From Nitrospiria bacterium (GTDB lineage Bacteria; Nitrospirota; RBG-16-64-22), in the NCBI GenBank assembly GCA_919903025.1, contig CAKKSE010000040.1, positions 1-52,607 on the forward strand: a stretch of DNA of 52,607 nt, written 5' to 3'. The notes beneath the pieces are model-generated. The model was not told where the DNA came from, searched no databases, and saw only the letters and a program-made list of their open reading frames with translations. The first letter of the stretch is position 1, and each line of letters starts with the position of its first letter. Shown piece by piece: positions 1 through 11,598 of the stretch. The translations under genes and the position numbers were made by a program.

Positions 1-1314
1 CATCTGGTCGAAGAGGCGCAGGAGCGCAAAGGCAAGGCGCAGCAGTGGATCGAGCGCTTCGGCCGGCGCTACAGCCCGGCGGTGCTGGCGGGCTCGGCTT
101 TACTTCTGGTCGTGCCGTGGGTCTTGGGATGGTCTCTTGCCGAATGGTCACTGCGCGCGGTGGTGCTGCTCGTGGCCGCCGCGCCGTGTGCGCTCATCAT
201 GTCCACGCCGGTCGCCATGGCCGCCGGCATCGGCTCCGGCGGGCGGCGCGGCATCCTCATCAAGGGCGGCGCGCACCTTGAACACTTGGGCGCGATCCGC
301 ACGGTCGCCTTCGACAAGACCGGCACGCTCACTCACGGCGAACCGGTCGTCACCGAGGTAGTCATGCTCGATGGCACGGAGCAGGAACTGCTCGCGATAG
401 CCGCGGCCCTCGAACACTACTCCGAGCATCCCCTGTCGCGGGCGATTGTCGCGCATGCACAGGCGACCGGCGCGCAGGCCGTTGCGGTCGAGGCCTTCGA
501 GGCGCTCGCCGGCGCCGGTGCCAAGGCCCGAATCGGGAATCAGACCTGGTACATCGGCAGCCCCGCGCTCTTCGAGCGACTCGGCGCCGGACGCAAGACT
601 GCCGAGACGCGCATCACCGCGCTCCAGGAACAGGGCAAGACCGTGGTGCTGGTCGGGAACGAAAACGGCGTGCGCGGGCTCATCGCCCTGCAGGACCACG
701 TGCGCGCCGGAGCAAGAGAGACAATCGCGCGGCTGCACGCGCACGGCCTATGCACCGCCATGCTCACCGGTGACAACGCGCGTACCGCCCACGCGGTTGC
801 CCGCGCGCTCGGCATTGACGACGTGTGCGCCGATTTAAAACCCGAAGACAAGGTCGCCGCCGTGCAGCAACTGGAGAAACTCCACGGCGCCGTGCTCATG
901 GTGGGCCACGGCGTCAACGACGCGCCGGCGCTCGCTGCCGCGACCTGCGGTGTGGCCATGGGCGCGGCCGGCACGGATGCCGCCATCGAGGCCGCCTACG
1001 TCGCGCTCATGGCTGACGATATCGGGAAGGTGGAGGAAGCGCTCGCGCTCGGCCGCAAGGCCCGGCGCATCTCCGCACAGAACATCGTGTTCTCGCTTCT
1101 CGTACTGGCCGCCATGATCCCGCTTGCCGTCCTCGGAGTCATTGGAGTGGCAGTGACGGTGCTGGTGCACGAGGCGAGCGAGCTGCTCTCGGTCGTCAAC
1201 GGACTCCGCGCTGGACGTCTTTCAAACCTGACCCGGCCGCGCGCCGGCCCCACCTCGTCGTCTTCCGCTCGCATCCGCGTCGATTCGGAAGCGCGCCGCA
1301 CAAGGATCTCTTGA
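1..1314 (+). CDS. Heavy-metal-translocating P1B-type ATPase, 5'-truncated by window edge (P1B-4-like APC/HE signature)
   Basis: Frame open from base 1 (HLVEEAQERKGKAQQWIERF...). Motifs AAPCAL, FDKTGTLT (phospho-Asp), SEHP, MLTGDN, GHGVNDAPALA (normally GDG), VHEAS in last TM. Confidence 0.92.
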   Translation, partial: HLVEEAQERKGKAQQWIERFGRRYSPAVLAGSALLLVVPWVLGWSLAEWSLRAVVLLVAAAPCALIMSTPVAMAAGIGSGGRRGILIKGGAHLEHLGAIRTVAFDKTGTLTHGEPVVTEVVMLDGTEQELLAIAAALEHYSEHPLSRAIVAHAQATGAQAVAVEAFEALAGAGAKARIGNQTWYIGSPALFERLGAGRKTAETRITALQEQGKTVVLVGNENGVRGLIALQDHVRAGARETIARLHAHGLCTAMLTGDNARTAHAVARALGIDDVCADLKPEDKVAAVQQLEKLHGAVLMVGHGVNDAPALAAATCGVAMGAAGTDAAIEAAYVALMADDIGKVEEALALGRKARRISAQNIVFSLLVLAAMIPLAVLGVIGVAVTVLVHEASELLSVVNGLRAGRLSNLTRPRAGPTSSSSARIRVDSEARRTRIS

Positions 1315-1529
1315 TTGCACCTCTTCACCTCCGCACTCAAACAGCCCCTTCTTGGCACCGGAGGACAGCTGCTGGATGACCACATATAAAACGACCCCCA
1401 GAGGAGCAAAGCCTGGGTGGACACACCGGATGAATCGCCCGCTCGCCTCTTCGAGGAGCAGTACCTTGAGACGCTTGCTCATGTGAACAAACACAAGGAG
1501 CAGTATGCGGCCACGGAGTGAGTCTAGAC

Positions 1530-2039
1530 TCAATTCCCTTGTTCCTCCGGTGCGGACTGTCGCGCCGCCCTACGCCAGATCCCCCAGAGGACGAGGCCCA
1601 GGAGAATGGCAAGCGACCCCTGCAGAGAGAGAAAGGCCGCGATCTTCATATACGCAAACCCCGGATGCACGAACCGCACGAGCCATCCCGCTCCCTCGTT
1701 CAACAGGGCCGAGAGGAACGGCACGGCGACCCCCACGGCCTTCCATCCGTTGCGGAGCGGAACAAACAGGAGCAGATGCGTAAGGAGAAGAAGGACCATC
1801 CCCATGATCGGCAGGTGGAAGTGCGTGACCTCCAGCATCCCCTGATACGTCCGGGGCGCCGTGTACTGCGCTTCGGAGCCGAGGTAGTACCCCACGACGG
1901 CTTCGTAGGAAAGCCCCATCTTCAGGAAGAAGAGGAGGAAGTTCGTCACCCACAGTCCCCCGAGAAACACAAAGGCCCAGGAGAGCGTGAGGCGCATCAG
2001 AGGAGCACCCTTCATCTCCCCGTTTGCCAGGTATTTCAT
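1530..2039 (-). CDS. Conserved ~4-TM membrane protein with His residues (THFHL, LTHL); third gene of porin/FMN operon
   Basis: 169 aa with hydrophobic segments; ATGA overlap with upstream FMN-binding gene. Confidence 0.8.
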   Translation of the reverse strand: MKYLANGEMKGAPLMRLTLSWAFVFLGGLWVTNFLLFFLKMGLSYEAVVGYYLGSEAQYTAPRTYQGMLEVTHFHLPIMGMVLLLLTHLLLFVPLRNGWKAVGVAVPFLSALLNEGAGWLVRFVHPGFAYMKIAAFLSLQGSLAILLGLVLWGIWRRAARQSAPEEQGN

Positions 2040-2575
2040 CGTCGATCCTCCGCAAGCTTCACCCGGTAGATCGCCAGCAGGCGGCGCACGGCATCGGAAA
2101 TGGCCCTTGACGAGAGCGTGGCCCCGCTGATCCCGTGGATTTCCCGCCCAACCCGAAGGTCCGGTGTCAGCCTACACCCTGCAAACTGCCCCAGCCACCG
2201 GGAAGAGGGCAGGTACTCGAGCGGCTCATGGAAGGCCAAGACATGGACGGCCCGCACCCTCCCCTCCGGGGTCAGGACAATGAGGACTGTCTCCGGCATC
2301 GTCCGCACGACGTGTGTTTCAATGAAGGCGTATCCCAGAACGCCCCCTGCTTTCCTGCCGACATAGACCGTCACGAGCCGGGATTCCAGGCGGCTCTGAG
2401 CCAGATCTTCGATCCGTCGAATTTCCCCCGGTGCCAGGAAGATGGTCCGGGCTTCCACGGACTCCGCCTCAGGAAAGGCGAGGCGGAGAGCCGCTTCCTT
2501 GCTGTGGAACACCGCAGCCCCCGCCTCCATCACACTACATACCAGCAGTACTAGTGCCAAAATAGCGCTTCGCAT
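2036..2575 (-). CDS. Exported FMN-binding domain protein (RnfG/NqrC-like flavinylation substrate)
   Basis: N-terminal signal peptide; C-terminal ISGATLSS flavinylation motif; V-x-V-L-A-F-H-E-P core. Confidence 0.85.
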   Translation of the reverse strand: MRSAILALVLLVCSVMEAGAAVFHSKEAALRLAFPEAESVEARTIFLAPGEIRRIEDLAQSRLESRLVTVYVGRKAGGVLGYAFIETHVVRTMPETVLIVLTPEGRVRAVHVLAFHEPLEYLPSSRWLGQFAGCRLTPDLRVGREIHGISGATLSSRAISDAVRRLLAIYRVKLAEDRR

Positions 2576-2595
2576 GACGGCTTAATCCCTGACTC

Positions 2596-3876
2596 TTAGA
2601 ACATGTAACTCATTCCCACGTTCCACTGGTTGATTCCGGTCCCCGCCGCGTTCCGCCGGTCCTGGTAGTCGAACTTGACGGCCACGTTCGGGATCGGCTT
2701 GTACGTGAGGCCCATCGTCCAGACCTGGCGATCGTTGGCCGGATCGGCCTGATATCCCGCCGGCACGGCAGCCTGCGTGTTCAATTGCTCGTAGCGGACG
2801 AAGGGGGAGAGGGCGTGCGTCGTCCTCGGCCGAAAGAGGGGCAGCACGTCGTAGGCGCCTTGCAGATACCACCCTTTCATCCGCGAGCCTACTGAGGCCT
2901 TCCCCGTGACCCCTTTCAGGAGGTTCACCCGGTCGGCCTCCCCCACGCATCCCTCGGCATACAGCGCCCGGAGGTCGATCCCCCGCCATCGCCATTGGGC
3001 ATGGAGGTCCCAGAGCGTGACGGGCGCCTCAAGCGTCTGCCCGCCGACCTGATCCCCCTGCCCCGAGTTCCCGGCGAAGAACGAGGCGCCCAACGTGAGT
3101 CCGGGCACTCCTTTGTAGTCCAGGCGGCCGGTGAACGCCAGGTCCTCGGCCAGGCTCCGCGCCCCGCTCTGACGCCCGCCACGCACCCCCTCGGCCGCCG
3201 AGAACCCCGAGGCTTTCAACCCGGCTGTGACGTAGAAGCGGTAGTCCAGACCCGGAAGCGGCTCGCCGAACACCCCGACGCCGTTCTCCCGCCACGTCGT
3301 GGGGAGGATGAACCGCTCCACGTCCGGACGGAGGACGCCGTGGAACGTGACCGGCTCATGCTGCTCGTTCACCCATCCCATGGGGATGAGGACCATCCCC
3401 ATGCGGAGATTGGCGGCCGGGTGCAGGAGGAAATCGAGGTGGGCGAACTCCACCGACGCCTCCCCGCCCTTCCCCGTGCTCGCATGCTCGAACTCCAGCT
3501 CCGAGTTGAAGATCACCCGGTCGGAGAACTTGTATCCTAGGTAGATGACGCTCCGGAGGAAGTCGGCTTGGTCCCGCTTCCCCGAGGGGGTGCCGTCGTC
3601 CTTCGTCCCCTTGAAATTCTCGTACGTCAGCTCGCCGTAGCCGGCCAGCGAAACGCCCCGCGTGATCCCGTAGACCCTGGAGGCCGCCGGCCCCAGGCCG
3701 AAGTAGGGCTTCAATTCTTCCTTCTCCGGCAGCACGAGTTGCGTCTTCAGCTTCTCGATCTCCTCGGCCAGGATGCCGATCCTCCGCTCGACCTCCCGTG
3801 AAGCCGTCTCTTCGGCCGTTGCGGGACTCCCCGCGAGCAGGATGCCCAACGCCAACACCATCCATCGTGTTCCCAT
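2596..3876 (-). CDS. Outer-membrane beta-barrel porin with N-terminal coiled segment (OprO/P-like)
   Basis: Signal peptide MGTRWMVLALG after GAGGAGGA RBS; amphipathic strands, ELEFEH motif, C-terminal Phe (GMSYMF). Confidence 0.82.
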   Translation of the reverse strand: MGTRWMVLALGILLAGSPATAEETASREVERRIGILAEEIEKLKTQLVLPEKEELKPYFGLGPAASRVYGITRGVSLAGYGELTYENFKGTKDDGTPSGKRDQADFLRSVIYLGYKFSDRVIFNSELEFEHASTGKGGEASVEFAHLDFLLHPAANLRMGMVLIPMGWVNEQHEPVTFHGVLRPDVERFILPTTWRENGVGVFGEPLPGLDYRFYVTAGLKASGFSAAEGVRGGRQSGARSLAEDLAFTGRLDYKGVPGLTLGASFFAGNSGQGDQVGGQTLEAPVTLWDLHAQWRWRGIDLRALYAEGCVGEADRVNLLKGVTGKASVGSRMKGWYLQGAYDVLPLFRPRTTHALSPFVRYEQLNTQAAVPAGYQADPANDRQVWTMGLTYKPIPNVAVKFDYQDRRNAAGTGINQWNVGMSYMF

Positions 3877-3896
3877 GACGTGTCCTCCTCTGGTTG

Positions 3897-3916
3897 CCTG
3901 CCTGCCAACAGGCAGG
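3897..3916. repeat. Short palindromic element CCTGCCTG-CCAA-CAGGCAGG
   Basis: Perfect 8-bp inverted repeat between terminator and porin RBS. Confidence 0.6.
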
Positions 3917-3921
3917 GATGT

Positions 3922-3975
3922 GAAACAAAAAAAGCCCACAGGGGTCCGGGATCAACCGGACCGCGCCGTGGGCTC
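3922..3975 (-). terminator. Intrinsic terminator/attenuator in the porin-operon leader
   Basis: Minus strand AGCCCACGG..GGTCCGG-TTGATC-CCGGACC..CTGTGGGCT followed by a T7 run then GTTT, ~45 nt before porin start. Confidence 0.85.
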
Positions 3976-4032
3976 TGGGCTCAAACATCCTCGGGCCTCT
4001 TACATCTGATTACTGACTCGCGTCTACCATCA

Positions 4033-4085
4033 AGGCTAAGGTTGAGGTTCAGAAAATCCTAGACCTCGACCTCAGCCTCAACCTC
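4033..4085. repeat. Hexamer tandem/inverted repeat (AGGYTN)n...(RRCCTC)n
   Basis: aggcta aggttg aggttc ... gacctc gacctc agcctc aacctc; overlaps stop of zinc-ribbon ORF. Confidence 0.65.
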
Positions 4086-4251
4086 GTGCCTTCTGACTCC
4101 CGACTTCTGTTCCCAGCGGGATCCGCCACACCCGCTTGCACCGGCGGCACTTCAGCTCGACGGCGCCGTCCACCAGCCGGGCGATGAGCGAACCGCAGGG
4201 GCAGCGGAACTCGTCGCATTTTGTATGATTATGACATTCATTTTCAATCAT
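4078..4251 (-). CDS. Small Com-like (Mu Com family) zinc-ribbon protein; start uncertain
   Basis: EFRCPCGSLIARL...VELKCRRCKR: CxC + CxxC knuckle pattern typical of Com-family proteins. The in-frame ATG lies within the predicted promoter. Confidence 0.65.
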   Translation of the reverse strand: MIENECHNHTKCDEFRCPCGSLIARLVDGAVELKCRRCKRVWRIPLGTEVGSQKARG

Positions 4252-4256
4252 GTCAA
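4228..4256 (-). promoter_or_regulatory. sigma70 promoter TTGACA-N17-CATAAT with Fur-type box in spacer (4232-4246)
   Basis: Minus strand ttgaca tgattgaaaatgaatgt cataat; TGAAAAT-G-AATGTCA resembles the box upstream of fur. Confidence 0.75.
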
Positions 4257-4265
4257 GCAAAAATC

Positions 4266-4421
4266 TCACCCCCTCCGCTCGAAGACCACCGTATGGAGCA
4301 CGTCGGCCCAGACCCGGCTGCCGACCTCCAGCACCGTCGTGGAAGACTGCGTGCTGTGGACGACCTGGCCGGAGGGGAGCGCGACAGCGTAGAGGTTCTC
4401 CGACCCGTTCTCGGCGGCCAC
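4266..4421 (-). pseudogene. Remnant of ABC ATPase C-terminal TOBE domain (FbpC/PotA-like)
   Basis: Own translation: VAAENGSENLYAVALPSGQVVHSTQSSTTVLEVGSRVWADVLHTVVFERRG*. An in-frame TAG lies just upstream and there is no ATPase domain. Confidence 0.5.
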
Positions 4422-4474
4422 CCGCTAGCGGGAGCCGTCTATCAAACCGCGCCCAGGCACGTGCCTTGCGCGCC

Positions 4475-5167
4475 TCACCCTCCCACCCGCTTTACGAATA
4501 TCTCCTTCGCGATCTCCTCGTCCACGGCGAGGGTCGTCTCGCCGATCTCGAGGACGATCGAAGGCTGTTTCTGGACGAGCCGGACCGTGCTCCCTGGCAC
4601 GAGCCCCATCGCGCCCAGCTTCGGCAGGCGAGACGTGAACCCCGGCGTCATGAAGGCGACGCGCCCCGCCTCTCCCGGCGAGAGGTCCGACAGGCGGGAG
4701 ACGAGAGGCTTCAGGTCGCGCCGGTACTTGGCGCAACAGTCCCCTCGCGGGATCGGCTTGCCGTCCGGCGTCGTCGTGGGATGGCCGAGGAAGGCGCAGA
4801 CGGAGTCGGTCACCTGGGGCGAGAGGATGTGCTCGAACTCGCACGCGTGCCGAGTCGCCTCCTGGTCCCCCAGGTCGAAGACGTCCACGAGAAGGCGGCG
4901 GGAGAGCCTGAACCGCCGCACGATCCCCCGGGCCCATTCGTCGCCCGTCTGGGTCAGGGCGATCTCCTCTCCGGCGATCTTCAAGTGTCCTTCGCGGACA
5001 AGATGGTCGAGGAGCGAGCGCGGATCCGGCTCCAGCGTGACCGCCAGCGCGTCGGCGAGACGCGTCTTTCCCTCTTCCCGGAGAGTCCAGATCTGCTCCA
5101 GAATCTCCTCCAGCTTCTGCTTCTTGACCTGTTCTTCTTCGCCGTGCGGGGGGCAAAGCTCAACCAT
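4475..5167 (-). CDS. DtxR/MntR-family metal-dependent regulator with C-terminal FeoA/SH3 domain
   Basis: EEILEQIW, ACEFEHIL, FLGHPTTTPDGKPIP, then FeoA-like LSDL..G..LGAMGLVPG; AAGGAGG RBS. Confidence 0.9.
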   Translation of the reverse strand: MVELCPPHGEEEQVKKQKLEEILEQIWTLREEGKTRLADALAVTLEPDPRSLLDHLVREGHLKIAGEEIALTQTGDEWARGIVRRFRLSRRLLVDVFDLGDQEATRHACEFEHILSPQVTDSVCAFLGHPTTTPDGKPIPRGDCCAKYRRDLKPLVSRLSDLSPGEAGRVAFMTPGFTSRLPKLGAMGLVPGSTVRLVQKQPSIVLEIGETTLAVDEEIAKEIFVKRVGG

Positions 5168-5193
5168 GACGTTCCTCCTTCAAACAAGGCTTC

Positions 5194-5282
5194 ACCGCAG
5201 AGAACGCGGAGCACGCCGAGAAAATCGTTCTTTGATCTCAAGTGTAGCCCTTTTTCTCTGCGCCCTCCGCGTTCTCCGCGGT
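5194..5282. repeat. 9-mer-periodic inverted repeat element
   Basis: accgcagagaacgcggagcacgccgaga ... tctctgcgccctccgcgttctccgcggt between feoB and the DtxR gene. Confidence 0.7.
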
Positions 5283-5297
5283 CCAGGATGTTTCGTA

Positions 5298-7271
5298 CTA
5301 CAAGACCGGAACTAGGTTCAGAATCCAGTGCACTATTCCTCCAACAACGAACGCGAAGGGAAAGATGAACGCCGCCATTCCCAGGGCGGGCCTCAGGCCC
5401 CTCTCCTTGATCATCATGAAGAAATTCGCGATGCACGGAACGAACAGCGTGATCGTGACGAGCGACACGACGACCTGGTGCGCGTCCATCTGACCGGCCT
5501 TCTGGAGGGCGAACAAGCCCGCCGCGCCGTAGTCCCGCCGGAGGAACCCGACGAGAAACGCCTCGGTCGCGCGGGCCGGAAGCCCCAGGAAACCCTCCAC
5601 CAAGGGGGAAGTCACGCCGGTGAGCCACGCGAGGACGCTCATCCGGTCGAGGACGAACAGGACCAGCGTCCCCAGGATGAAGAGGGGAACGGCCTCCCGA
5701 AGGTACCACTCCACCCGTCCGGCGGTCTTGACGAGGATGTTGGAGAGGAGGGGACGGCGGATCGGGGGGATCTCCAGCATGAACTCCGTGTCGTCCCCTT
5801 TGAAGATGCGCGCGGAGAGAAAACCGACGAGAAAGATCACGCCGACGAGCGTCCCCACCCAGACCGCGATGCCAGCCCAGGGAAGCGTGGCGGCCATGCC
5901 CGTTACGACGCCAAGCTGGGCCGAGCAGGGAACGCCGAGGGCGAGGAGAAGCGTCACGATCATCCGCTCCTTCCGCGTCTCCAGGATCCGCGTCGTCATC
6001 GTCGCCATCGTGTCGCACCCGAGGCCGAGGATCATTGGAAGGACCGCTTTCCCGTTGAGCCCCATCGCCTTGAAGATCTTGTTGAGCATGACGGCCAGGC
6101 GGGGGAGGTATCCGGTGTCTTCGAGAACGGCGAACGCGATGAAGAACGTCGTCGTGATTGGAAGAACGATTGCGATGGCGTAGGTTAACGCCATCGTGAC
6201 GATCCCGTATTCCCCCACGAACAGATCCTGGAGGGGCTTCCAGGGAACGAGAAGAGTAATGAGGCGCGTCGCCCACGGGTTCAGGAACTGGCCGAAGACC
6301 GTTTCCTCGAAAAAATCGACCAGGACGCCCGCCCCGAGCTGGCCGACGAAATAGTAGATCAGAACAAGGACAAGGAGAAGGATCGGCACGCCCCAGACCG
6401 GGTGCATGGACCACTCCCCGAAGGCCCGGACCCACTGCGAACCGGCCGGGGGGAGCCGCGTCATCACGGATTGGAGGAGCGTATCCACGGTCCGCAGGCG
6501 CTGTTCGCCGATCACGTAGGCGAGCGGGAAGCCGTACCTGCGCTGGACCTCTTCCCGGACCTCTTCGAGGCGTTGGACCGCCGCCGCGTCAAGGCGGGCG
6601 TTCAGCCACTGTTTGAGGGAGGCGTCCCCGGCGAGGACCATCAGGGCGATCGACTCACGGGAAATGGGGGCGTCCGGGAGAAGCGCGGCGATCCGATCTA
6701 TCCCGTCCCGGATGGGCGCGTCGTAAACCGCCCGGAACGACGACGGCCGGGCGCCGCCGACCGCTTCCCTGAGCGCGTCGATCCCCTGCCGCTGAACGGC
6801 GACCGTCGTCACGACCGGAATTCCCAGTCTCCCGGCGAGGAGTCCCGCGTCCACGAAGACTCCCCGCGAACGGGCCTCGTCGTCCATGTTGAGGTCGAGA
6901 GCGACGGGCAGTCCCATCTCGATGAGTTGGATCGTCAGGAGGAGGCTGCGGCGGATGTTCTTCGCGTCCGCGACCTGGATGACGGCCCTCGGCGTCTCGG
7001 CTAGCAGGATGTCGCGCGTCACGAGCTCGTCCTCGGACGTCGGAACGAGCGAGTTGACGCCCGGCGTGTCGATGACGACGGCCCGGCGTCTGCCGAAGAC
7101 GGCGTTGCCCGTGCTCACTTCGACCGTCGTCCCGGGGTAGTTGGAGACGGTCACGTACTTCCCGGTCAGGAGACCGAAGATCGAACTTTTGCCGACGTTC
7201 GGATTGCCGAGGAGAATGACGCGGTCAACTCCCTCGTGGACAGCGGACGCGGAGACACCATGCTCGTGCAA
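5298..7271 (-). CDS. feoB: Ferrous iron transport protein B
   Basis: GNPNVGKS, VSNYPGTTV, DTPG, NMDD G-domain; LEDTGYLPR, GLGC, VPC gate motifs. Confidence 0.97.
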   Translation of the reverse strand: MHEHGVSASAVHEGVDRVILLGNPNVGKSSIFGLLTGKYVTVSNYPGTTVEVSTGNAVFGRRRAVVIDTPGVNSLVPTSEDELVTRDILLAETPRAVIQVADAKNIRRSLLLTIQLIEMGLPVALDLNMDDEARSRGVFVDAGLLAGRLGIPVVTTVAVQRQGIDALREAVGGARPSSFRAVYDAPIRDGIDRIAALLPDAPISRESIALMVLAGDASLKQWLNARLDAAAVQRLEEVREEVQRRYGFPLAYVIGEQRLRTVDTLLQSVMTRLPPAGSQWVRAFGEWSMHPVWGVPILLLVLVLIYYFVGQLGAGVLVDFFEETVFGQFLNPWATRLITLLVPWKPLQDLFVGEYGIVTMALTYAIAIVLPITTTFFIAFAVLEDTGYLPRLAVMLNKIFKAMGLNGKAVLPMILGLGCDTMATMTTRILETRKERMIVTLLLALGVPCSAQLGVVTGMAATLPWAGIAVWVGTLVGVIFLVGFLSARIFKGDDTEFMLEIPPIRRPLLSNILVKTAGRVEWYLREAVPLFILGTLVLFVLDRMSVLAWLTGVTSPLVEGFLGLPARATEAFLVGFLRRDYGAAGLFALQKAGQMDAHQVVVSLVTITLFVPCIANFFMMIKERGLRPALGMAAFIFPFAFVVGGIVHWILNLVPVL

Positions 7272-7324
7272 GAGGAACCTCCGGCCGGCGCGCGGGCCTG
7301 TGGCGCCGCACCGGGAAGAATTCG

Positions 7325-7432
7325 TTGAAGAACCCCGCCTTGAAAGGCGGGAATTCTTCGACCTCCAAGGTGCTTTTCGATATTTGCATTCGTTCGCCGT
7401 AATCCCCGCCCCAAGGGGCGGGGATTACGGCG
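7325..7432 (-). mobile_element. Candidate IS200/IS605-derived non-autonomous element (two CCCGCC hairpins, ...TTCAA end)
   Basis: Perfect 18-bp IR at 7395-7432, plus GAATTCCCGCCTTTCAAGGCGGGGTTCTTCAA on the minus strand, resembling IS605 right ends. Confidence 0.45.
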
Positions 7433-7443
7433 CACTGCGCGGT

Positions 7444-8268
7444 TCAGTTGTGCGCGGATGATTTTCCGGCCCTGTGCACCAGGAGACTCGCCACCGTGAG
7501 CGCCGCGGCGTAGGCCAGAACTTCCGTCAATGCCGGGTTGGCCCGGTAGCCCGTGAGCGTCCGGACGGCCGTCCCGGCTAGGCTCTTGTGGTCGAGAAGC
7601 CATGAAGTGTTCCAGAGCGGCTTGACGATCGCCGGGACAAGACCGAGTTCGACCGCCTCGTGAACGGCGCTTGAGGCAAGCCCCGCAATCAACATAACGA
7701 GCAGGACCGTCGAGACCCGGAAAAACCAAGCGACAGGCAGGCGGGAAATCCCGGCGAAGAAGAGCCACGCAAGCCCCGCCGCAAGAACGATCCCGCCGGC
7801 GCCCGCCGCGAGCATGGACGCGTGGCTCACTGTCTCCGTCTGTTGAAGAACGATGCTCCAGAGGAACAAAACCGTCTCGGCCCCCTCGCGGAGTACTCCC
7901 AGGAAGGCGATCGCCGCCACGCCGCCCCAGGCCCCCCGCGTCAGGACCTCCTCCGCCCGCCGCTCGATCTCTCCCCGAAGAACGCGCTTGTTTCTCTGCA
8001 TCCAGACGAGCATCTGCGTGAGCAGGACCGCCGCCACGGAGAAGACGCCCAGTTCCATCCACTTCTCGGCCGGCCCTTCCCATGCGAATCCGTACGCCTT
8101 CACGATGCCGCCCAACGCCAGGCTCGCGATCACCCCCAAGCCCGCCCCCGCCCAGACGCCGGCGACGGCCCTCGGCTCCCCCAGCCTCCTGACCGCCGTC
8201 AGGAGTATCCCAATAATGATCGCCGCCTCCAGCGACTCACGCCATGTCACGAGCATTACGCTTGCCAT
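7444..8268 (-). CDS. FTR1/EfeU-family iron permease
   Basis: Two RExxE motifs (RESLE, REGAE), ~7 TMs, C-terminal LTGY. Confidence 0.93.
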   Translation of the reverse strand: MASVMLVTWRESLEAAIIIGILLTAVRRLGEPRAVAGVWAGAGLGVIASLALGGIVKAYGFAWEGPAEKWMELGVFSVAAVLLTQMLVWMQRNKRVLRGEIERRAEEVLTRGAWGGVAAIAFLGVLREGAETVLFLWSIVLQQTETVSHASMLAAGAGGIVLAAGLAWLFFAGISRLPVAWFFRVSTVLLVMLIAGLASSAVHEAVELGLVPAIVKPLWNTSWLLDHKSLAGTAVRTLTGYRANPALTEVLAYAAALTVASLLVHRAGKSSAHN

Positions 8269-8293
8269 TGCATCCTCCAGGCAAATGCAGTGC

Positions 8294-8367
8294 GTAGTTC
8301 AGAGTTCAGAGTTGGGAGTCGAGGCAGTGGAAAGAACGCTCCGAACTCCACACCCCGAACTCCGAAC
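8294..8367. repeat. Heptamer tandem/inverted repeat (AGAGTTC)n...(CTCCGAA)n
   Basis: Between fur and FTR1. Confidence 0.7.
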
Positions 8368-8374
8368 CGACTCT

Positions 8375-8830
8375 TCATTTCCTCCGCCGTGCCCCCGGCT
8401 TCACTTTCCGACAGCCCCGGCAGACCCCGTACAGTTCCAGCTTATGGTCCTGGATCAGGAATCCGTGCTCCGCCGCCACACGGTCCTGGAGGCCTTCGAT
8501 TTTCACGTTCTCGAACTCGAAAATCTTCCCGCAGATCTTGCAAATCATGTGATCGTGGTGCCCGCCCGCCGCCGCCGGCTCATAGCACGACTCGTTCGCC
8601 CCGAACCGCCGCTCCTTCGCCACGCCCGCTTGGGCCAAGAGCTTGAGCGTCCGATAGACCGTGACCAGCCCAATCGCCGGGTTCTTCCGAGAGACGGACC
8701 GGTGAAGGCCCTCGGCGGTAATATGCCTGTGGGACGAGAGGAACTCCCGCGCGATCGCCGTCCGCTGACGGGTCGTCTTGAGCCCCTGACGCCTCAGATA
8801 CGCCTGGAATGTCTCTTCCCCGCTCGCCAC
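8375..8830 (-). CDS. fur: Ferric uptake regulator family repressor
   Basis: TRQR, TVYRTL, HHDHMICKICG, CRGC. Confidence 0.93.
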   Translation of the reverse strand: MASGEETFQAYLRRQGLKTTRQRTAIAREFLSSHRHITAEGLHRSVSRKNPAIGLVTVYRTLKLLAQAGVAKERRFGANESCYEPAAAGGHHDHMICKICGKIFEFENVKIEGLQDRVAAEHGFLIQDHKLELYGVCRGCRKVKPGARRRK

Positions 8831-8857
8831 CGGGCATCCCCCCAGCGATATTATTAT

Positions 8858-8872
8858 TGAAAACGATTTTCA
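8858..8872. promoter_or_regulatory. Fur-type operator TGAAAAC-G-ATTTTCA (autoregulation)
   Basis: Near-perfect 7-1-7 palindrome in an AT-rich patch just downstream of the -10. Confidence 0.8.
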
Positions 8873-8878
8873 TGTTCT

Positions 8879-8907
8879 TTTATACGCCTCCCCTGGTCCC
8901 GTGTCAA
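8879..8907 (-). promoter_or_regulatory. sigma70 promoter TTGACA-N17-TATAAA for fur-FTR1-feoB-dtxR
   Basis: Consensus hexamers with 17-bp spacing. Confidence 0.75.
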
Positions 8908-8997
8908 GAGCAATGTCGGGACTTGCGGCAGTCCGGACAAGACCCGGAAACGCCGCTCTGGGAATCGATCTTCCTACCCCGGCAGAGGCCGCTCCCA

Positions 8998-10197
8998 TCA
9001 GACGGCCCGTTTTCCTTCCCTGACAACGACGAAGAACGCAGCGGACGAAAGGACGAGAACGACGGCGAGGGCGAGGAAGGCCGTCCGGTAGCCGGCTGAC
9101 GCGACGAGAAGGCCGGCCGCGATCGGTCCCGATGCGTGGCCCACGTCCATGACCGTCCCGAAGACGCCCATGGCCGAACCGTAGTGCCGCTCCCGGCAGA
9201 AGTCGGCCACGAGCGCCGGCACGGATGACGTGACGGCCGCCACGCCGATCCCGAAGACGGCGAGAACGGCCAGAAGAAGCTCGATTGACGAGAACCACGG
9301 AATCGCCGCGAGCGAAGAAGCCGTCACGAGGAGGCCGCCAGCGATGAAGGGCCGGCGCCCCATGCGGTCGGAGAATCGTCCGAGGATCGGTTTGGAGAGG
9401 ACGGTGACGGCGAGTTGTACGCCGAACAGAACCCCCACGTGGGCGCTGTTGAGCCCCACCGAAAGGGCGTAGAGAGGGAGAAACGCCTGGATCGCGCCCG
9501 TCGCCAGGAACTGCGCGGCTTGCGCCGCAGACGTCACGAGAACGTTCCGATCTCCCGCGACTTCCCGCAGGCCGGCGACAAGCTTGGGCCACAGAGGGTC
9601 CCCGGCCGCCGAAGGGGAAGCAGGCCTCGGCGGAAGATCCAGCCGAAGGACCACGAGGACCAGGGCCAGGGATCCGGCCGCCCCCGCGCAGAGAAAAGCC
9701 GGGGAGAAACCGGCGCTGTAGACGATCGCCCCGCCGATCACGGGGCCGAGCAGGCCGCCCGTCATCTGGATCGAGGAGTACCACGACATCGCTTCCGCCC
9801 GCTTTTCGCGGAACATGTCCGCGATCACGGCCAGGACAACGGGGGACGTGACCGCCGTCGCCAGACCATGGAAGAAGCGGACTACGGTCAGTACAATCTC
9901 GTTCGCCGCCAGGAGGTAGACGAAGGGCGTGAATCCGAAGACCGCCATTCCGAACAGAAGGATGCGCTTCCGAGGCAGATGGTCGGAGAGGGCGCCGGCG
10001 GGGAACTTGACGAAGATCCCGGTGATCGTCGAGGCGGCGACGATGAATCCGATTTCGGCGGGCCCCACGCCGAGCGACCCCGCGTAGAGCGCGAGGACGG
10101 GGCTCCGGATCATCTCGTACGACATCCAGGCGAGGAATCCGGCGGAGGAGAGGAGACCCAGCGTCCGGAGGGGTGAAAAATCTCCTTGTGTCGCCAT
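8998..10197 (-). CDS. MFS transporter (12 TM)
   Basis: Motif A GALSDHLPRK and GRFSDRMGRR; start taken at MATQ. Confidence 0.92.
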   Translation of the reverse strand: MATQGDFSPLRTLGLLSSAGFLAWMSYEMIRSPVLALYAGSLGVGPAEIGFIVAASTITGIFVKFPAGALSDHLPRKRILLFGMAVFGFTPFVYLLAANEIVLTVVRFFHGLATAVTSPVVLAVIADMFREKRAEAMSWYSSIQMTGGLLGPVIGGAIVYSAGFSPAFLCAGAAGSLALVLVVLRLDLPPRPASPSAAGDPLWPKLVAGLREVAGDRNVLVTSAAQAAQFLATGAIQAFLPLYALSVGLNSAHVGVLFGVQLAVTVLSKPILGRFSDRMGRRPFIAGGLLVTASSLAAIPWFSSIELLLAVLAVFGIGVAAVTSSVPALVADFCRERHYGSAMGVFGTVMDVGHASGPIAAGLLVASAGYRTAFLALAVVLVLSSAAFFVVVREGKRAV

Positions 10198-10250
10198 CGC
10201 CTGGCCTGCTATCAAGACCTCACCTCGGGGCAAAGCGGATGGAGGTTGCC

Positions 10251-10403
10251 GTGACGATTGGAAAGATTCGGACTCTCCTTTACGGGGCGGCGAAGATTCT
10301 GGGCGACATCAGCGCCGTCCAGAGGGGAAAGGCAAAGGAGCGGATCGCCCGCCGCCTCGCCGGCAAGGTCACGGGCCGCCTCCTGGGCCGGATCTTCAAA
10401 TGA
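10251..10403 (+). CDS. Small basic amphipathic protein (50 aa), unknown function
   Basis: GGAGG RBS plus GTG; TIGKIRTLLYGAAKILGDISAVQRGKAKERIARRLAGKVTGRLLGRIFK. Confidence 0.6.
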   Translation: MTIGKIRTLLYGAAKILGDISAVQRGKAKERIARRLAGKVTGRLLGRIFK

Positions 10404-11598
10404 GCGCAAGGGCCAACCCCGCGGCGGCCGCGGCTGTTGCTCCGACCACATAGACGGGCGGCGCCTTCCAGAGAACCAGCGCTCCGAATCCCCCGATCGC
10501 CAGAATGAAATCGGAATGAGAGCGGATCGTCGTCGTCCAGATGGGATCGTAGAGCGCCGCGAGCAGGATCCCGACGACGGCCGCGTTCACCCCGCCCAGC
10601 GCCGCGGCTGCGGCCTTGCGCCGCCGCAGTTCCTCCCAGAACGGGAGCGCGCCGACCACGAGGAGAAACGCGGGAAGGAAGATGGCCGCCAGTCCGATGA
10701 GTCCGCCGGCCCATCCCCGCAGGTCCCCGTTCATGACCGCGCCGAGATAGGCGCCGAAAGTGAAGAGAGGACCGGGCACGGCTTGGGCCGCCCCGTACCC
10801 CGCGAGAAAATCCACGTCGCTCACCCACCCCGGGGGCACGACCTCGGCCCGGAGAAGCGGAAGAACCACGTGCCCCCCGCCGAAGACGAGTGAGCCGGCG
10901 CGGTAGAACGCATCGAAGAGCTTGAGCGCCCGGCTTCCGTCGGCCGCCGCGAGTCCCGGAAGGAAAACGAGCAGTCCGAAGAACAAAGCCAGGAACGCCA
11001 GGCCCGCTCTTTTCGAGACCGGAACCTCCAGCGGCTCATGCGCTCCGTCGCTCGGAGTCGGAACCACCCGCCACCCGACGAGCCCGCCGCCCGCAATGAC
11101 GAGGACCTGCACGAGCGCGCCGGGCCACGCCAGCGTGAAAATCGCCGCCGCGATCGCAAGCGTCGCCCGGGGGCGGTCCGGGCAGAGCGCGTTTCCCATC
11201 CCCCAAACTGCCTGCGCTACCACAGCCACGGCCACGACCTTGAGACCGTGGACCCAACCCGACGCCGCGGCATCCGGATAGTGCGCCATGCCGTAGGCGA
11301 ACGCGATCAGAACGAGCGCCGAGGGCATGGTAAAGCCGGTCCAGGCCGCCAAGGCGCCCGGAAGCCCCGCGCGCCTTATGCCGAGAGCGATCCCCACCTG
11401 ACTGCTGGCCGGCCCCGGCAGGAACTGGCACAGGGCCACAAGCTCGGCGTACGCCTTCTCTCCCAGCCACTGGCGCCGCTTCACGAACTCCTCGCGGAAA
11501 TATCCGAGGTGGGCAATCGGCCCGCCGAATGACGTCAGTCCCAGCTTGAGAAAGACGAGAAACACTTCCAGAGCGCTTCGGGCTTGAGTCACAGCCAA
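10396..11598 (-). CDS. chrA: Chromate efflux transporter (long-chain CHR)
   Basis: SFGGPIAHLG, QFLPGPASSQ, VFGGGHVVLP, AQAVPGP. Confidence 0.95.
   Translation of the reverse strand: MAVTQARSALEVFLVFLKLGLTSFGGPIAHLGYFREEFVKRRQWLGEKAYAELVALCQFLPGPASSQVGIALGIRRAGLPGALAAWTGFTMPSALVLIAFAYGMAHYPDAAASGWVHGLKVVAVAVVAQAVWGMGNALCPDRPRATLAIAAAIFTLAWPGALVQVLVIAGGGLVGWRVVPTPSDGAHEPLEVPVSKRAGLAFLALFFGLLVFLPGLAAADGSRALKLFDAFYRAGSLVFGGGHVVLPLLRAEVVPPGWVSDVDFLAGYGAAQAVPGPLFTFGAYLGAVMNGDLRGWAGGLIGLAAIFLPAFLLVVGALPFWEELRRRKAAAAALGGVNAAVVGILLAALYDPIWTTTIRSHSDFILAIGGFGALVLWKAPPVYVVGATAAAAAGLALALI

Follow-up and report, generated by a model that had tools for sequence, protein, structure and literature searches.

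How a bacterium might use a protein-bound flavin in its periplasm to take up iron is the question raised by three adjacent genes near one end of contig CAKKSE010000040.1 of a Nitrospiria bacterium; we analyzed a stretch of 52,607 nucleotides (nt) of this contig, from position 1, hereafter the window. The genes encode an outer-membrane porin, a secreted protein with a flavin mononucleotide (FMN)-binding domain, and an inner-membrane protein with four transmembrane (TM) helices, which we call the 4-TM protein. The original prediction read this trio as a candidate reductive iron-uptake module in which the 4-TM protein, as a heme-b/quinol electron donor, would supply the FMN protein with electrons to reduce Fe(III) entering through the porin. 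From what follows, we consider iron-regulated reductive iron acquisition a likely general function of the cassette. More tentatively, we propose that it is a Fur-repressed, iron-starvation system for reductive iron acquisition in which the 4-TM protein handles metal and the flavinylating enzyme ApbE acts in trans. Taken alone, the metal-handling role of the 4-TM protein has in our judgment a chance a little short of even, and an electron-donor role is a serious but rather doubtful candidate.

All three predicted open reading frames (ORFs) are present on the minus strand: the porin at 2596–3876, the secreted FMN_bind protein at 2036–2575, and the 169-residue 4-TM protein at 1530–2039. The porin is read from the ATG at 3876, which has AGGAGG 8 nt upstream, and a longer form starting at the GTG at 3939 is less likely. 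Only 20 nt separate the porin stop from the FMN gene, and the TGA stop of the FMN gene overlaps the ATG of the 4-TM gene as ATGA, an arrangement in which we propose that the 4-TM gene is translationally coupled to the flavoprotein gene.

A genome scan queried with the single 4-TM protein alone gave no match. A pattern scan with a narrower alignment, taking one genome per species, returned 427 stretches encoding a 4-TM relative, and we kept 80 of these loci, all from metagenome-assembled genomes, and searched their ORFs with the window's proteins. Their labels include Nitrospirota, Myxococcota, Binatia, Elusimicrobiota, Acidobacteriota, Bacteroidota/Ignavibacteria, KSB1, Calditrichia, and Rokubacteria. 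Alongside the 4-TM gene, present in all 80 loci, we found FMN_bind in 78, the porin in 70, and ApbE in 61, and the trio is indeed a conserved unit. In five of the 10 loci lacking a porin match, the sequence breaks off within 1 kb upstream of the 4-TM gene. Less frequent companions are Fur (26 loci), a small ORF that also precedes the porin in the window (18), FeoB (9), FTR1 (7), and DtxR (1), and the genes are arranged either as [Fur]-[small ORF]-porin-FMN-4TM-[ApbE] or as Fur-ApbE-porin-FMN-4TM. In 7 of the 80 loci the cassette is followed by a member of the iron-linked imelysin family. All-against-all clustering of the loci, with ORFs antisense to core genes and one unannotated 74-locus cluster set aside, gave no further family in more than 12 loci, no other recurrent metal regulator, and no inner-membrane protein of the cassette besides the 4-TM protein. 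Within the window's own phylum, 11 of 31 genomes have a 4-TM match at E ≤ 1e-8. The distribution is patchy, because no relative was found at this threshold in two genomes of the same genus, G006 (92% complete) and G016 (89%). A relative does occur in families of the phylum that are further removed, a pattern compatible with gain or loss of the cassette.

The trio is also tied to iron control, as had been predicted from its surroundings. In the six-frame ORF listing with family scans, it closes a co-directional minus-strand block that runs from 8830 to 1530. The scans confirmed the two predicted neighbors, the ferrous iron transporter gene feoB at 5298–7271 (TIGR00437, 385.9 bits, cut-off 315.65) and an FTR1/EfeU-type iron permease gene at 7444–8268 (PF03239, 1.1e-40). 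The same block holds fur at 8375–8830 (PF01475, 1.5e-34) and a DtxR/IdeR-type iron-dependent regulator gene at 4475–5167 (Fe_dep_repr_C, 1.7e-20; FeoA/SH3-like, 7.7e-15). FeoB or FTR1 lies within 8 kb of the cassette in 16 of the 80 loci and Fur is adjacent in 26, as counted above.

The promoter with a Fur-type box that the original prediction assigned to the operon lies outside the span it had given, but the box is real and sits within the promoter. The promoter, on the minus strand at 4256–4228, consists of TTGACA, a 17-nt spacer, and TG-CATAAT, with 11 of 12 hexamer positions matched, and is the sole strong sigma-70-like site in 1200–4500, where shuffled sequences had a mean of 0.5 sites. 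The Fur-box-like palindrome at 4232–4246, to which no strand is assigned, overlaps the −10 element with 2 mismatches to TGAAAATNATTTTCA, a consensus taken from Rodionov et al. (2004; PMC545781), and lies 356 nt upstream of the porin start with the small ORF in between. Only one other such box occurs in the window, likewise unstranded, at 8858–8872, 28 nt upstream of the fur start with 1 mismatch to the consensus; shuffled windows had a mean of 0.28 boxes, and 4 of 100 reached 2. Among 60 related loci with usable upstream DNA, 36 have a Fur box within −500 to +60 of the porin start, and the density upstream of the porin is 1.31/kb vs. 0.09/kb elsewhere, an approximately 15-fold enrichment. Relatives that have the small ORF carry the same class of box 290–395 nt upstream of the porin, and loci without a box at the porin are mostly those in which apbE and fur precede it. 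Fur control of the cassette is therefore well supported at the level of predicted sites.

The small ORF itself (63 codons, 4078–4269, minus strand) is a Zn-ribbon candidate with the core CxCG...CRRCKR, recognized through phmmer conservation (E of 1e-9 to 1e-13) and lying between Fur and the porin in the 18 loci that have it. No Pfam family was assigned in any of the 13 members scanned, nor was an NCBIfam family found. Its only canonical in-frame starts, GTG at 4269 and ATG at 4251, are both at or upstream of the predicted promoter, and thus either the start call or the promoter call is wrong. It could encode a regulator or a rubredoxin-like cytoplasmic partner.

The second gene had been described as encoding an exported FMN protein with an SGAT motif, and this description held. 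The protein matches PF04205 (FMN_bind) at 27.9 bits against a curated cut-off of 22 and contains GISGATLSS, in which we read the flavinylation site as Thr153 within H-G-I-S-G-A-T. Among solved structures, RnfG (9eri_G, E 0.0017, residues 50–171) is nearest in sequence, with the flavinylated motif and Thr aligned; the protein is far below the curated RnfG cut-offs (20 bits vs. 102–205). The published flavinylation motif is D-x-x-[S/T]-G-A-[S/T], with FMN on the last residue, and replacing its Asp with Ala has only minor effects according to the review that gives it (PMC12052999). The window's protein fits four of the five specified positions, His taking the place of Asp. Among 79 FMN-protein homologues, [ST]GA[ST] as such is present in only 30, and G151 is kept in all 79 and the target T153 in 73.

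As the original prediction stated, there is no apbE in the 52.6-kb window, which makes it atypical among the related loci, most of which have ApbE adjacent. The genome has exactly one ApbE match (307 bits), on another contig (C27; 7431–9059 of locus L100, minus strand), and its action in trans on the FMN protein is plausible. This sole ApbE gene is an orphan between uvrA and a class-III aminotransferase gene, outside any flavinylation cluster. Two further FMN_bind matches in the genome lie on contigs C28 and C12. The predicted tie of the trio to flavinylation is borne out by the 61 loci with adjacent ApbE and by fusions in which the 4-TM domain precedes ApbE, the two being separated by one extra TM helix. 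Such fusions were found in 4 of 12 long forms scanned (P0136, P0138, P0141, P0189) and additionally in P0392.

We next consider the porin. The predicted beta-barrel was verified as a 16-stranded porin by an AlphaFold2 model and Foldseek. Following the signal peptide, the model, at a predicted local distance difference test (pLDDT) of 88.4, has an N-terminal coiled coil and 16 strands (DSSP), with a helix-bearing, L3-like internal loop at residues 164–195 between strands 5 and 6. Foldseek against the PDB gave 367 chains at E ≤ 0.001, and the matches listed are all general or specific (diffusion) porins; the top matches include Omp-Pst1 (2.5e-13) and OprP (3.1e-12), as well as OmpM1 and OmpF, and structural TM values to OmpF, OmpC, PorB, OmpM1, and OprP are 0.5–0.57. 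With its 16-strand barrel and internal constriction loop, the modeled protein would be placed among the general 16-stranded trimeric porins. The porin has no Pfam family at cut-off, and the phosphate-selective porin O/P model PF07396 does not match it, although one homologue reaches 13.6 bits against a cut-off of 20.9. Identity across phyla is about 50–57%. On one strand, residues 124–131 form an invariant N-S-E-x-E-F-E-H run with three Glu and the His on the same face; these residues probably line the pore, and their charge pattern hints at cation selectivity.

Two other roles for the barrel were considered and dropped. The MtrB barrel has 26 strands, and a conduit of the MtrAB kind was ruled out because a 16-stranded barrel with an internal loop is too small to sheathe the flavoprotein. 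The porin is also not a candidate ApbE substrate of the DUF3570 type, inspection by eye finding no [ST]GA[ST] motif in its sequence.

The 4-TM protein belongs to a family of unknown function. All 120 homologues listed carry a precomputed assignment to PF27139.1 (Aq_1264_TM, Pfam 38.1), and its nearest clusters in the Atlas bear the same name (feature score 0.97, structure TM 0.91); our own scans with a Pfam library lacking PF27139 (E ≤ 0.01) and with NCBIfam gave no match. The AlphaFold2 model (pLDDT 94.6) is a four-helix bundle with helices at 13–40, 65–90, 97–123, and 126–160. We place both termini in the cytoplasm from the positive residues after TM2 and TM4 and from the extra TM helix that precedes ApbE in the fusions. 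In line with the original prediction of His residues in the TM helices, His73, His75, and His88 are all in TM2; His125 lies at the turn between helices 3 and 4. E70-x-x-H73-x-H75 is near the periplasmic end of TM2 and H88, 13 residues beyond H75, near its cytoplasmic end. Among representative matches, E70 is kept in 102/108, H73 in 95/106, H75 in 102/108, and H88 in 106/111, as opposed to H125 in only 46/109, and no helix other than TM2 carries a conserved His.

Tandem-duplicated forms with eight TM helices bear on how these residues are used. Their N-terminal half keeps E70 and, in 12 of 12 forms, H73, with H75 and H88 each kept in 0 of 12; the C-terminal half keeps H75 and H88 in all 12 and H73 in 1. 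The halves have lost their His residues in complementary fashion, which fits one asymmetric site spanning two subunits better than symmetric bis-His pairs.

Neither fold nor profile comparison connected the 4-TM protein to a known redox family. Foldseek of the model against the PDB gave nothing at E ≤ 0.001, a wide VIA-align search gave only uninformative designed or soluble four-helix bundles (best Z 8.8), and a profile search of PDB sequences gave nothing meaningful. With hhalign, the comparison to DUF4405 had a probability of 0.45% (E 0.13) and that to cytochrome-b-like proteins 0.28%, and no similarity to PepSY, MsrQ, DUF4405, or cytochrome b was found by sequence, profile, or fold. The DUF4405 model matches other places in the genome, not the 4-TM gene. 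Its weaker matches in the phylum (L089–L099) are mostly cytochrome-b-like proteins of approximately 210–340 residues with a conserved PWDQ and paired His, and thus DUF4405 counts from the Pfam model mix two families. A structure prediction with two copies of the 4-TM protein and two hemes scored 0.11, against a mark of 0.42, and we gave it no weight either way. Fusion partners other than ApbE are a DtxR-type regulator and PilZ; none was an NAD/FAD (nicotinamide or flavin adenine dinucleotide) or Fe-S domain among the 12 long forms scanned and 3 from a search for longer forms. In P0129 and P0391 (417 and 419 residues), the 4-TM domain is joined by an acidic linker to a complete DtxR/IdeR-type regulator, and in P0131 it is fused to PilZ; all three may be genuine regulators tethered to the membrane, or artefacts of gene calling.

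Further information comes from a paralogous subfamily of 185–219 residues in which H-x-H is kept, H88 is absent, and the periplasmic TM1–TM2 loop is expanded and rich in His, Asp, Glu, and Met. We found it in 15 of 201 genomes of the window's phylum (loci L105–L126, in G004, G008, G014, G017, G023, and others). At 11 of 16 distinct places, the paralogue gene is directly behind CbiQ-CbiO on the same strand. Locus L109, for example, is an operon of CbiM-CbiQ-CbiO-paralogue with no CbiN, and with an NCBIfam cobalt-transporter model its CbiM reaches 195 bits, the cut-off being 173. At two more places, the paralogue is divergent from an OprB porin gene, and in the wider locus L108 DUF4198 follows the porin. 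No FMN_bind or ApbE match was found in the CbiMQO operons within loci of roughly 3.5 kb; a weak "FMN_bind-like" phmmer match beside the L105 paralogue was dropped for want of Pfam support. Cobalt/nickel importers of the energy-coupling factor (ECF) type that lack an N component are described as needing extra metal-capturing parts (PMC2667541, PMC545781), and the paralogous subfamily is a candidate for a new accessory component of this kind. Taken together, the His conservation, the tandem forms, the missing cytochrome link, the fusions, and the paralogue context suggest that E-x-x-H-x-H, which the 4-TM protein and its paralogues share, forms a metal site facing the periplasm, and in the 4-TM protein they favor a metal-binding site over a bis-His heme site.

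The analysis establishes the genes and their families, a conserved core of four genes together with ApbE, the link to Fur, and the metal-importer surroundings of the paralogues; what the cassette carries, which way its electrons flow, and that the 4-TM protein handles metal, we infer. Specifically, the cassette, in the order small Zn-ribbon ORF, dedicated porin, secreted RnfG/NqrC-type flavoprotein, and 4-TM Aq_1264_TM protein, would be expressed under iron starvation, and Thr153 of the flavoprotein would be flavinylated by the genome's single, separately encoded ApbE. Small iron species would diffuse through the porin into the periplasm, where the covalent FMN would reduce Fe(III). The 4-TM protein, probably as a dimer, would receive the resulting Fe(II) at its periplasm-facing E70-x-x-H73-x-H75 site and either pass it inward past H88 or hand it to the FeoB and FTR1 permeases encoded next door. 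The deep H88, which the iron cassette has in addition to E-x-x-H-x-H, would complete an inward path in a cassette with no other inner-membrane protein.

The chief alternative makes the 4-TM protein a small cytochrome of the b type, in which H75/H75′ and H88/H88′ of a homodimer would ligate heme, or another quinol-oxidizing relay. It would feed electrons from the quinone pool or the cytoplasm to the FMN protein and on to Fe(III), with Fe(II) then entering through FeoB/FTR1. We regard this as possible though on balance unlikely. It answers a real need, since an electron donor is required and the 4-TM protein is the sole inner-membrane protein of the cassette, and FeoB and FTR1 adjoin the cassette in the window. 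The near-invariant H75 and H88, with their spacing within TM2, fit it, as does the conservation of TM2 on two opposite faces, as for an interface-buried helix (an ideal-helix estimate only), and there are precedents in PepSY, MsrQ, and DUF4405 proteins and in FezC, with its proposed homodimeric heme sites (PMC11334425). On the other hand, no second helix bears a conserved His, the tandem forms have no symmetric His pair, and no redox step is expected of the H-x-H paralogues that serve CbiMQO metal importers. In addition, the family, profile, and fold searches gave no cytochrome match, and among the fusions examined none joins a redox domain to the 4-TM domain. On these grounds we did not find support for the heme-b/quinol donor of the original prediction, and we lean toward a 4-TM protein that docks beneath the flavoprotein as an acceptor or permease for Fe(II), a role that we rank slightly above the b-type cytochrome or quinol relay. 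The two are not mutually exclusive. Several considerations nevertheless weigh against metal handling by the 4-TM protein. The main weakness is that this reading leaves the flavoprotein with no electron source in the cassette, and in flavinylation clusters already published, the membrane protein encoded alongside usually carries electrons (PMC8238504, PMC11334425). A homodimeric b-type cytochrome such as FezC would also be expected to have two His residues with a spacing of 13 on one helix and at depths that suit two hemes. We found no similarity to known metal-transporter families, the ApbE fusions are no argument for a permease, and the paralogues, all of them from two related families within a single phylum, may have diverged functionally. 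Finally, the iron regulation rests on sequence motifs and gene neighborhood, and the RNA-library contigs described below neither show regulation nor exclude DNA carry-over.

The fusions to ApbE could instead mean that the 4-TM protein serves flavinylation, for example by exporting flavin adenine dinucleotide to the periplasm for ApbE, with no iron chemistry of its own; the route by which this cofactor reaches periplasmic ApbE is known for few systems only (PMC9973259). Such a role is very unlikely because the 4-TM gene tracks the FMN gene (78 of 80 loci, with the overlapping stop and start in the window) more tightly than it tracks ApbE (61 of 80). In the window's genome, moreover, the 4-TM gene stays with the FMN gene even though ApbE is encoded elsewhere, the paralogues in CbiMQO operons have neither partner nearby, and Pfam and NCBIfam scans revealed no similarity to known flavin transporters. 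The cassette might also be under Fur control without importing iron, acting on another metal or in periplasmic redox or repair functions under iron limitation. Iron is a predicted substrate, the paralogues point to cobalt/nickel systems, and 64 of the 80 loci have neither FeoB nor FTR1 within 8 kb. Against this, the regulatory context that recurs is one of Fur genes and Fur boxes, the FeoB, FTR1, and imelysin genes found at some loci all have links to iron, and the neighborhood clustering brought up no regulator of another metal; we judge a function other than iron import improbable, if a little less so than a role in flavinylation.

Fur-repressed reductive iron acquisition with a metal-handling 4-TM protein, the reading we prefer, places the cassette within a known kind of system, the ApbE-flavinylated extracytosolic proteins linked to iron assimilation (PMC8238504, PMC11334425), but its 4-TM protein is outside the published membrane classes, which are NapH-, MsrQ-, PepSY-, DsbD-, and NQR/RNF-like proteins and DUF4405/FezC. 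One close comparison is with the PepSY-like/DUF2271/DUF4198/ApbE clusters of Gram-negative bacteria, which are reported to be Fur-repressed and proposed to carry out assimilatory iron reduction (Meheust et al. 2021, PMC8238504; FoxB structure cited in PMC11334425). In both, a membrane protein is grouped with ApbE and with the periplasmic protein that ApbE flavinylates. The PepSY-like clusters share DUF4198 with nickel/cobalt importers, and here relatives of the 4-TM protein occur in CbiMQO operons. Unlike those clusters, the cassette has PF27139 in place of PepSY_TM and FMN_bind in place of DUF2271, heme binding is putative, and the outer-membrane partner is a dedicated diffusion porin instead of a TonB-dependent receptor. 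DUF4405/FezC proteins (Huang et al. 2024, PMC11334425) are likewise small membrane proteins encoded beside apbE, with conserved His approximately 13–14 residues apart on a helix, but DUF4405 is described with six TM helices and four central His, whereas here there are four TM helices with the His on one helix and tandem forms without symmetric partners. The P19-FTR1 clusters with an FMN_bind gene resemble the present locus in having an iron permease together with a flavinylated protein outside the cytosol, but no known electron donor in the membrane (PMC8238504). As described there, they are mostly Gram-positive and contain P19; the present cassette has no P19 but a porin and PF27139, and FTR1 is adjacent in 7 of 80 loci. 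With the FMN-binding subunits RnfG/NqrC the FMN protein has in common a domain-wide alignment to RnfG in which the flavinylated Thr also matches, but it is stand-alone and secreted, without Rnf/Nqr partners. The 4-TM paralogues, for their part, occupy the place of the extra membrane component (CbiN, NikN, NikK/NikL) in CbiM-CbiQ-CbiO operons without CbiN (PMC2667541, PMC545781). This likeness to CbiN, NikN, and NikL is by position, NikL being described with only an N-terminal TM segment, and the window's own 4-TM protein is outside any CbiMQO operon.

The porin may have been encountered before. Rodionov et al. (2004; PMC545781) placed a porin named "psp" in the predicted Fur regulon of Geobacter metallireducens and Desulfuromonas, behind tandem Fur boxes, and proposed that it transports iron; it was weakly similar to phosphate porins and had homologues in Aquifex and uncultured bacteria. 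That description fits the present porin family, and the Pfam family of the 4-TM protein is likewise named after an Aquifex gene; psp is probably this porin family. The part of that paper covered here makes no mention of FMN_bind, 4-TM, or ApbE partners. Searching full texts for the cassette returned only the known flavinylation papers, and we found no description of it in these; the supplementary tables of PMC8238504, which may list such clusters as unassigned, were outside the search. Neither PF27139 nor Aq_1264 is named in any paper of the searchable library.

A metatranscriptome (RNA-library) run, X15, has contigs spanning 30 of 30 bins of window positions 1–10500, intergenic parts included. 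One of them bridges the junction of the 4-TM and FMN genes, although as an assembled contig it is no proof of a single transcript. Another joins window position 4900 to 5369 on opposite strands and is probably an assembly chimera. On the far side of the cassette, a fragment of a heavy-metal P-type ATPase gene at 1–1314 on the plus strand converges on it. A chromate-transporter gene at 10396–11598 on the minus strand follows a major facilitator superfamily (MFS) gene, and the remainder of the window holds ordinary housekeeping genes, among them those for EngA, DXP synthase, RNase Y, CheB/CheR, and TonB.

Meheust et al. (PMC8238504) counted 6,230 genomes that have extracytosolic flavinylation and no characterized system; 3,635 of these were assigned, and 2,595 had no identified membrane apparatus. 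The cassette is one system of the kind left without such an apparatus, and it is present in at least 427 species-level genomes spread over many phyla, most of them uncultured, with a dedicated and highly conserved porin and a membrane component named in Pfam only after an Aquifex ORF. A bolder and doubtful proposal is that Aq_1264_TM is a new family of inner-membrane divalent-metal acceptors or permeases, acting as a metal-capturing accessory to CbiMQO importers without CbiN and, together with the dedicated porin, a flavinylated periplasmic reductase, and ApbE, in a self-contained "reduce-and-capture" form of ferric uptake. If true, this pathway of diderm bacteria would parallel the way in which yeast and plants pair a reductase with a permease, flavin replacing heme on the outer side. 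Deciding between a minimal cytochrome and a metal permease for the 4-TM protein would mark out a new way for groundwater and sediment bacteria to acquire iron and would give PF27139 a function, including that of its paralogues in cobalt and nickel importers.

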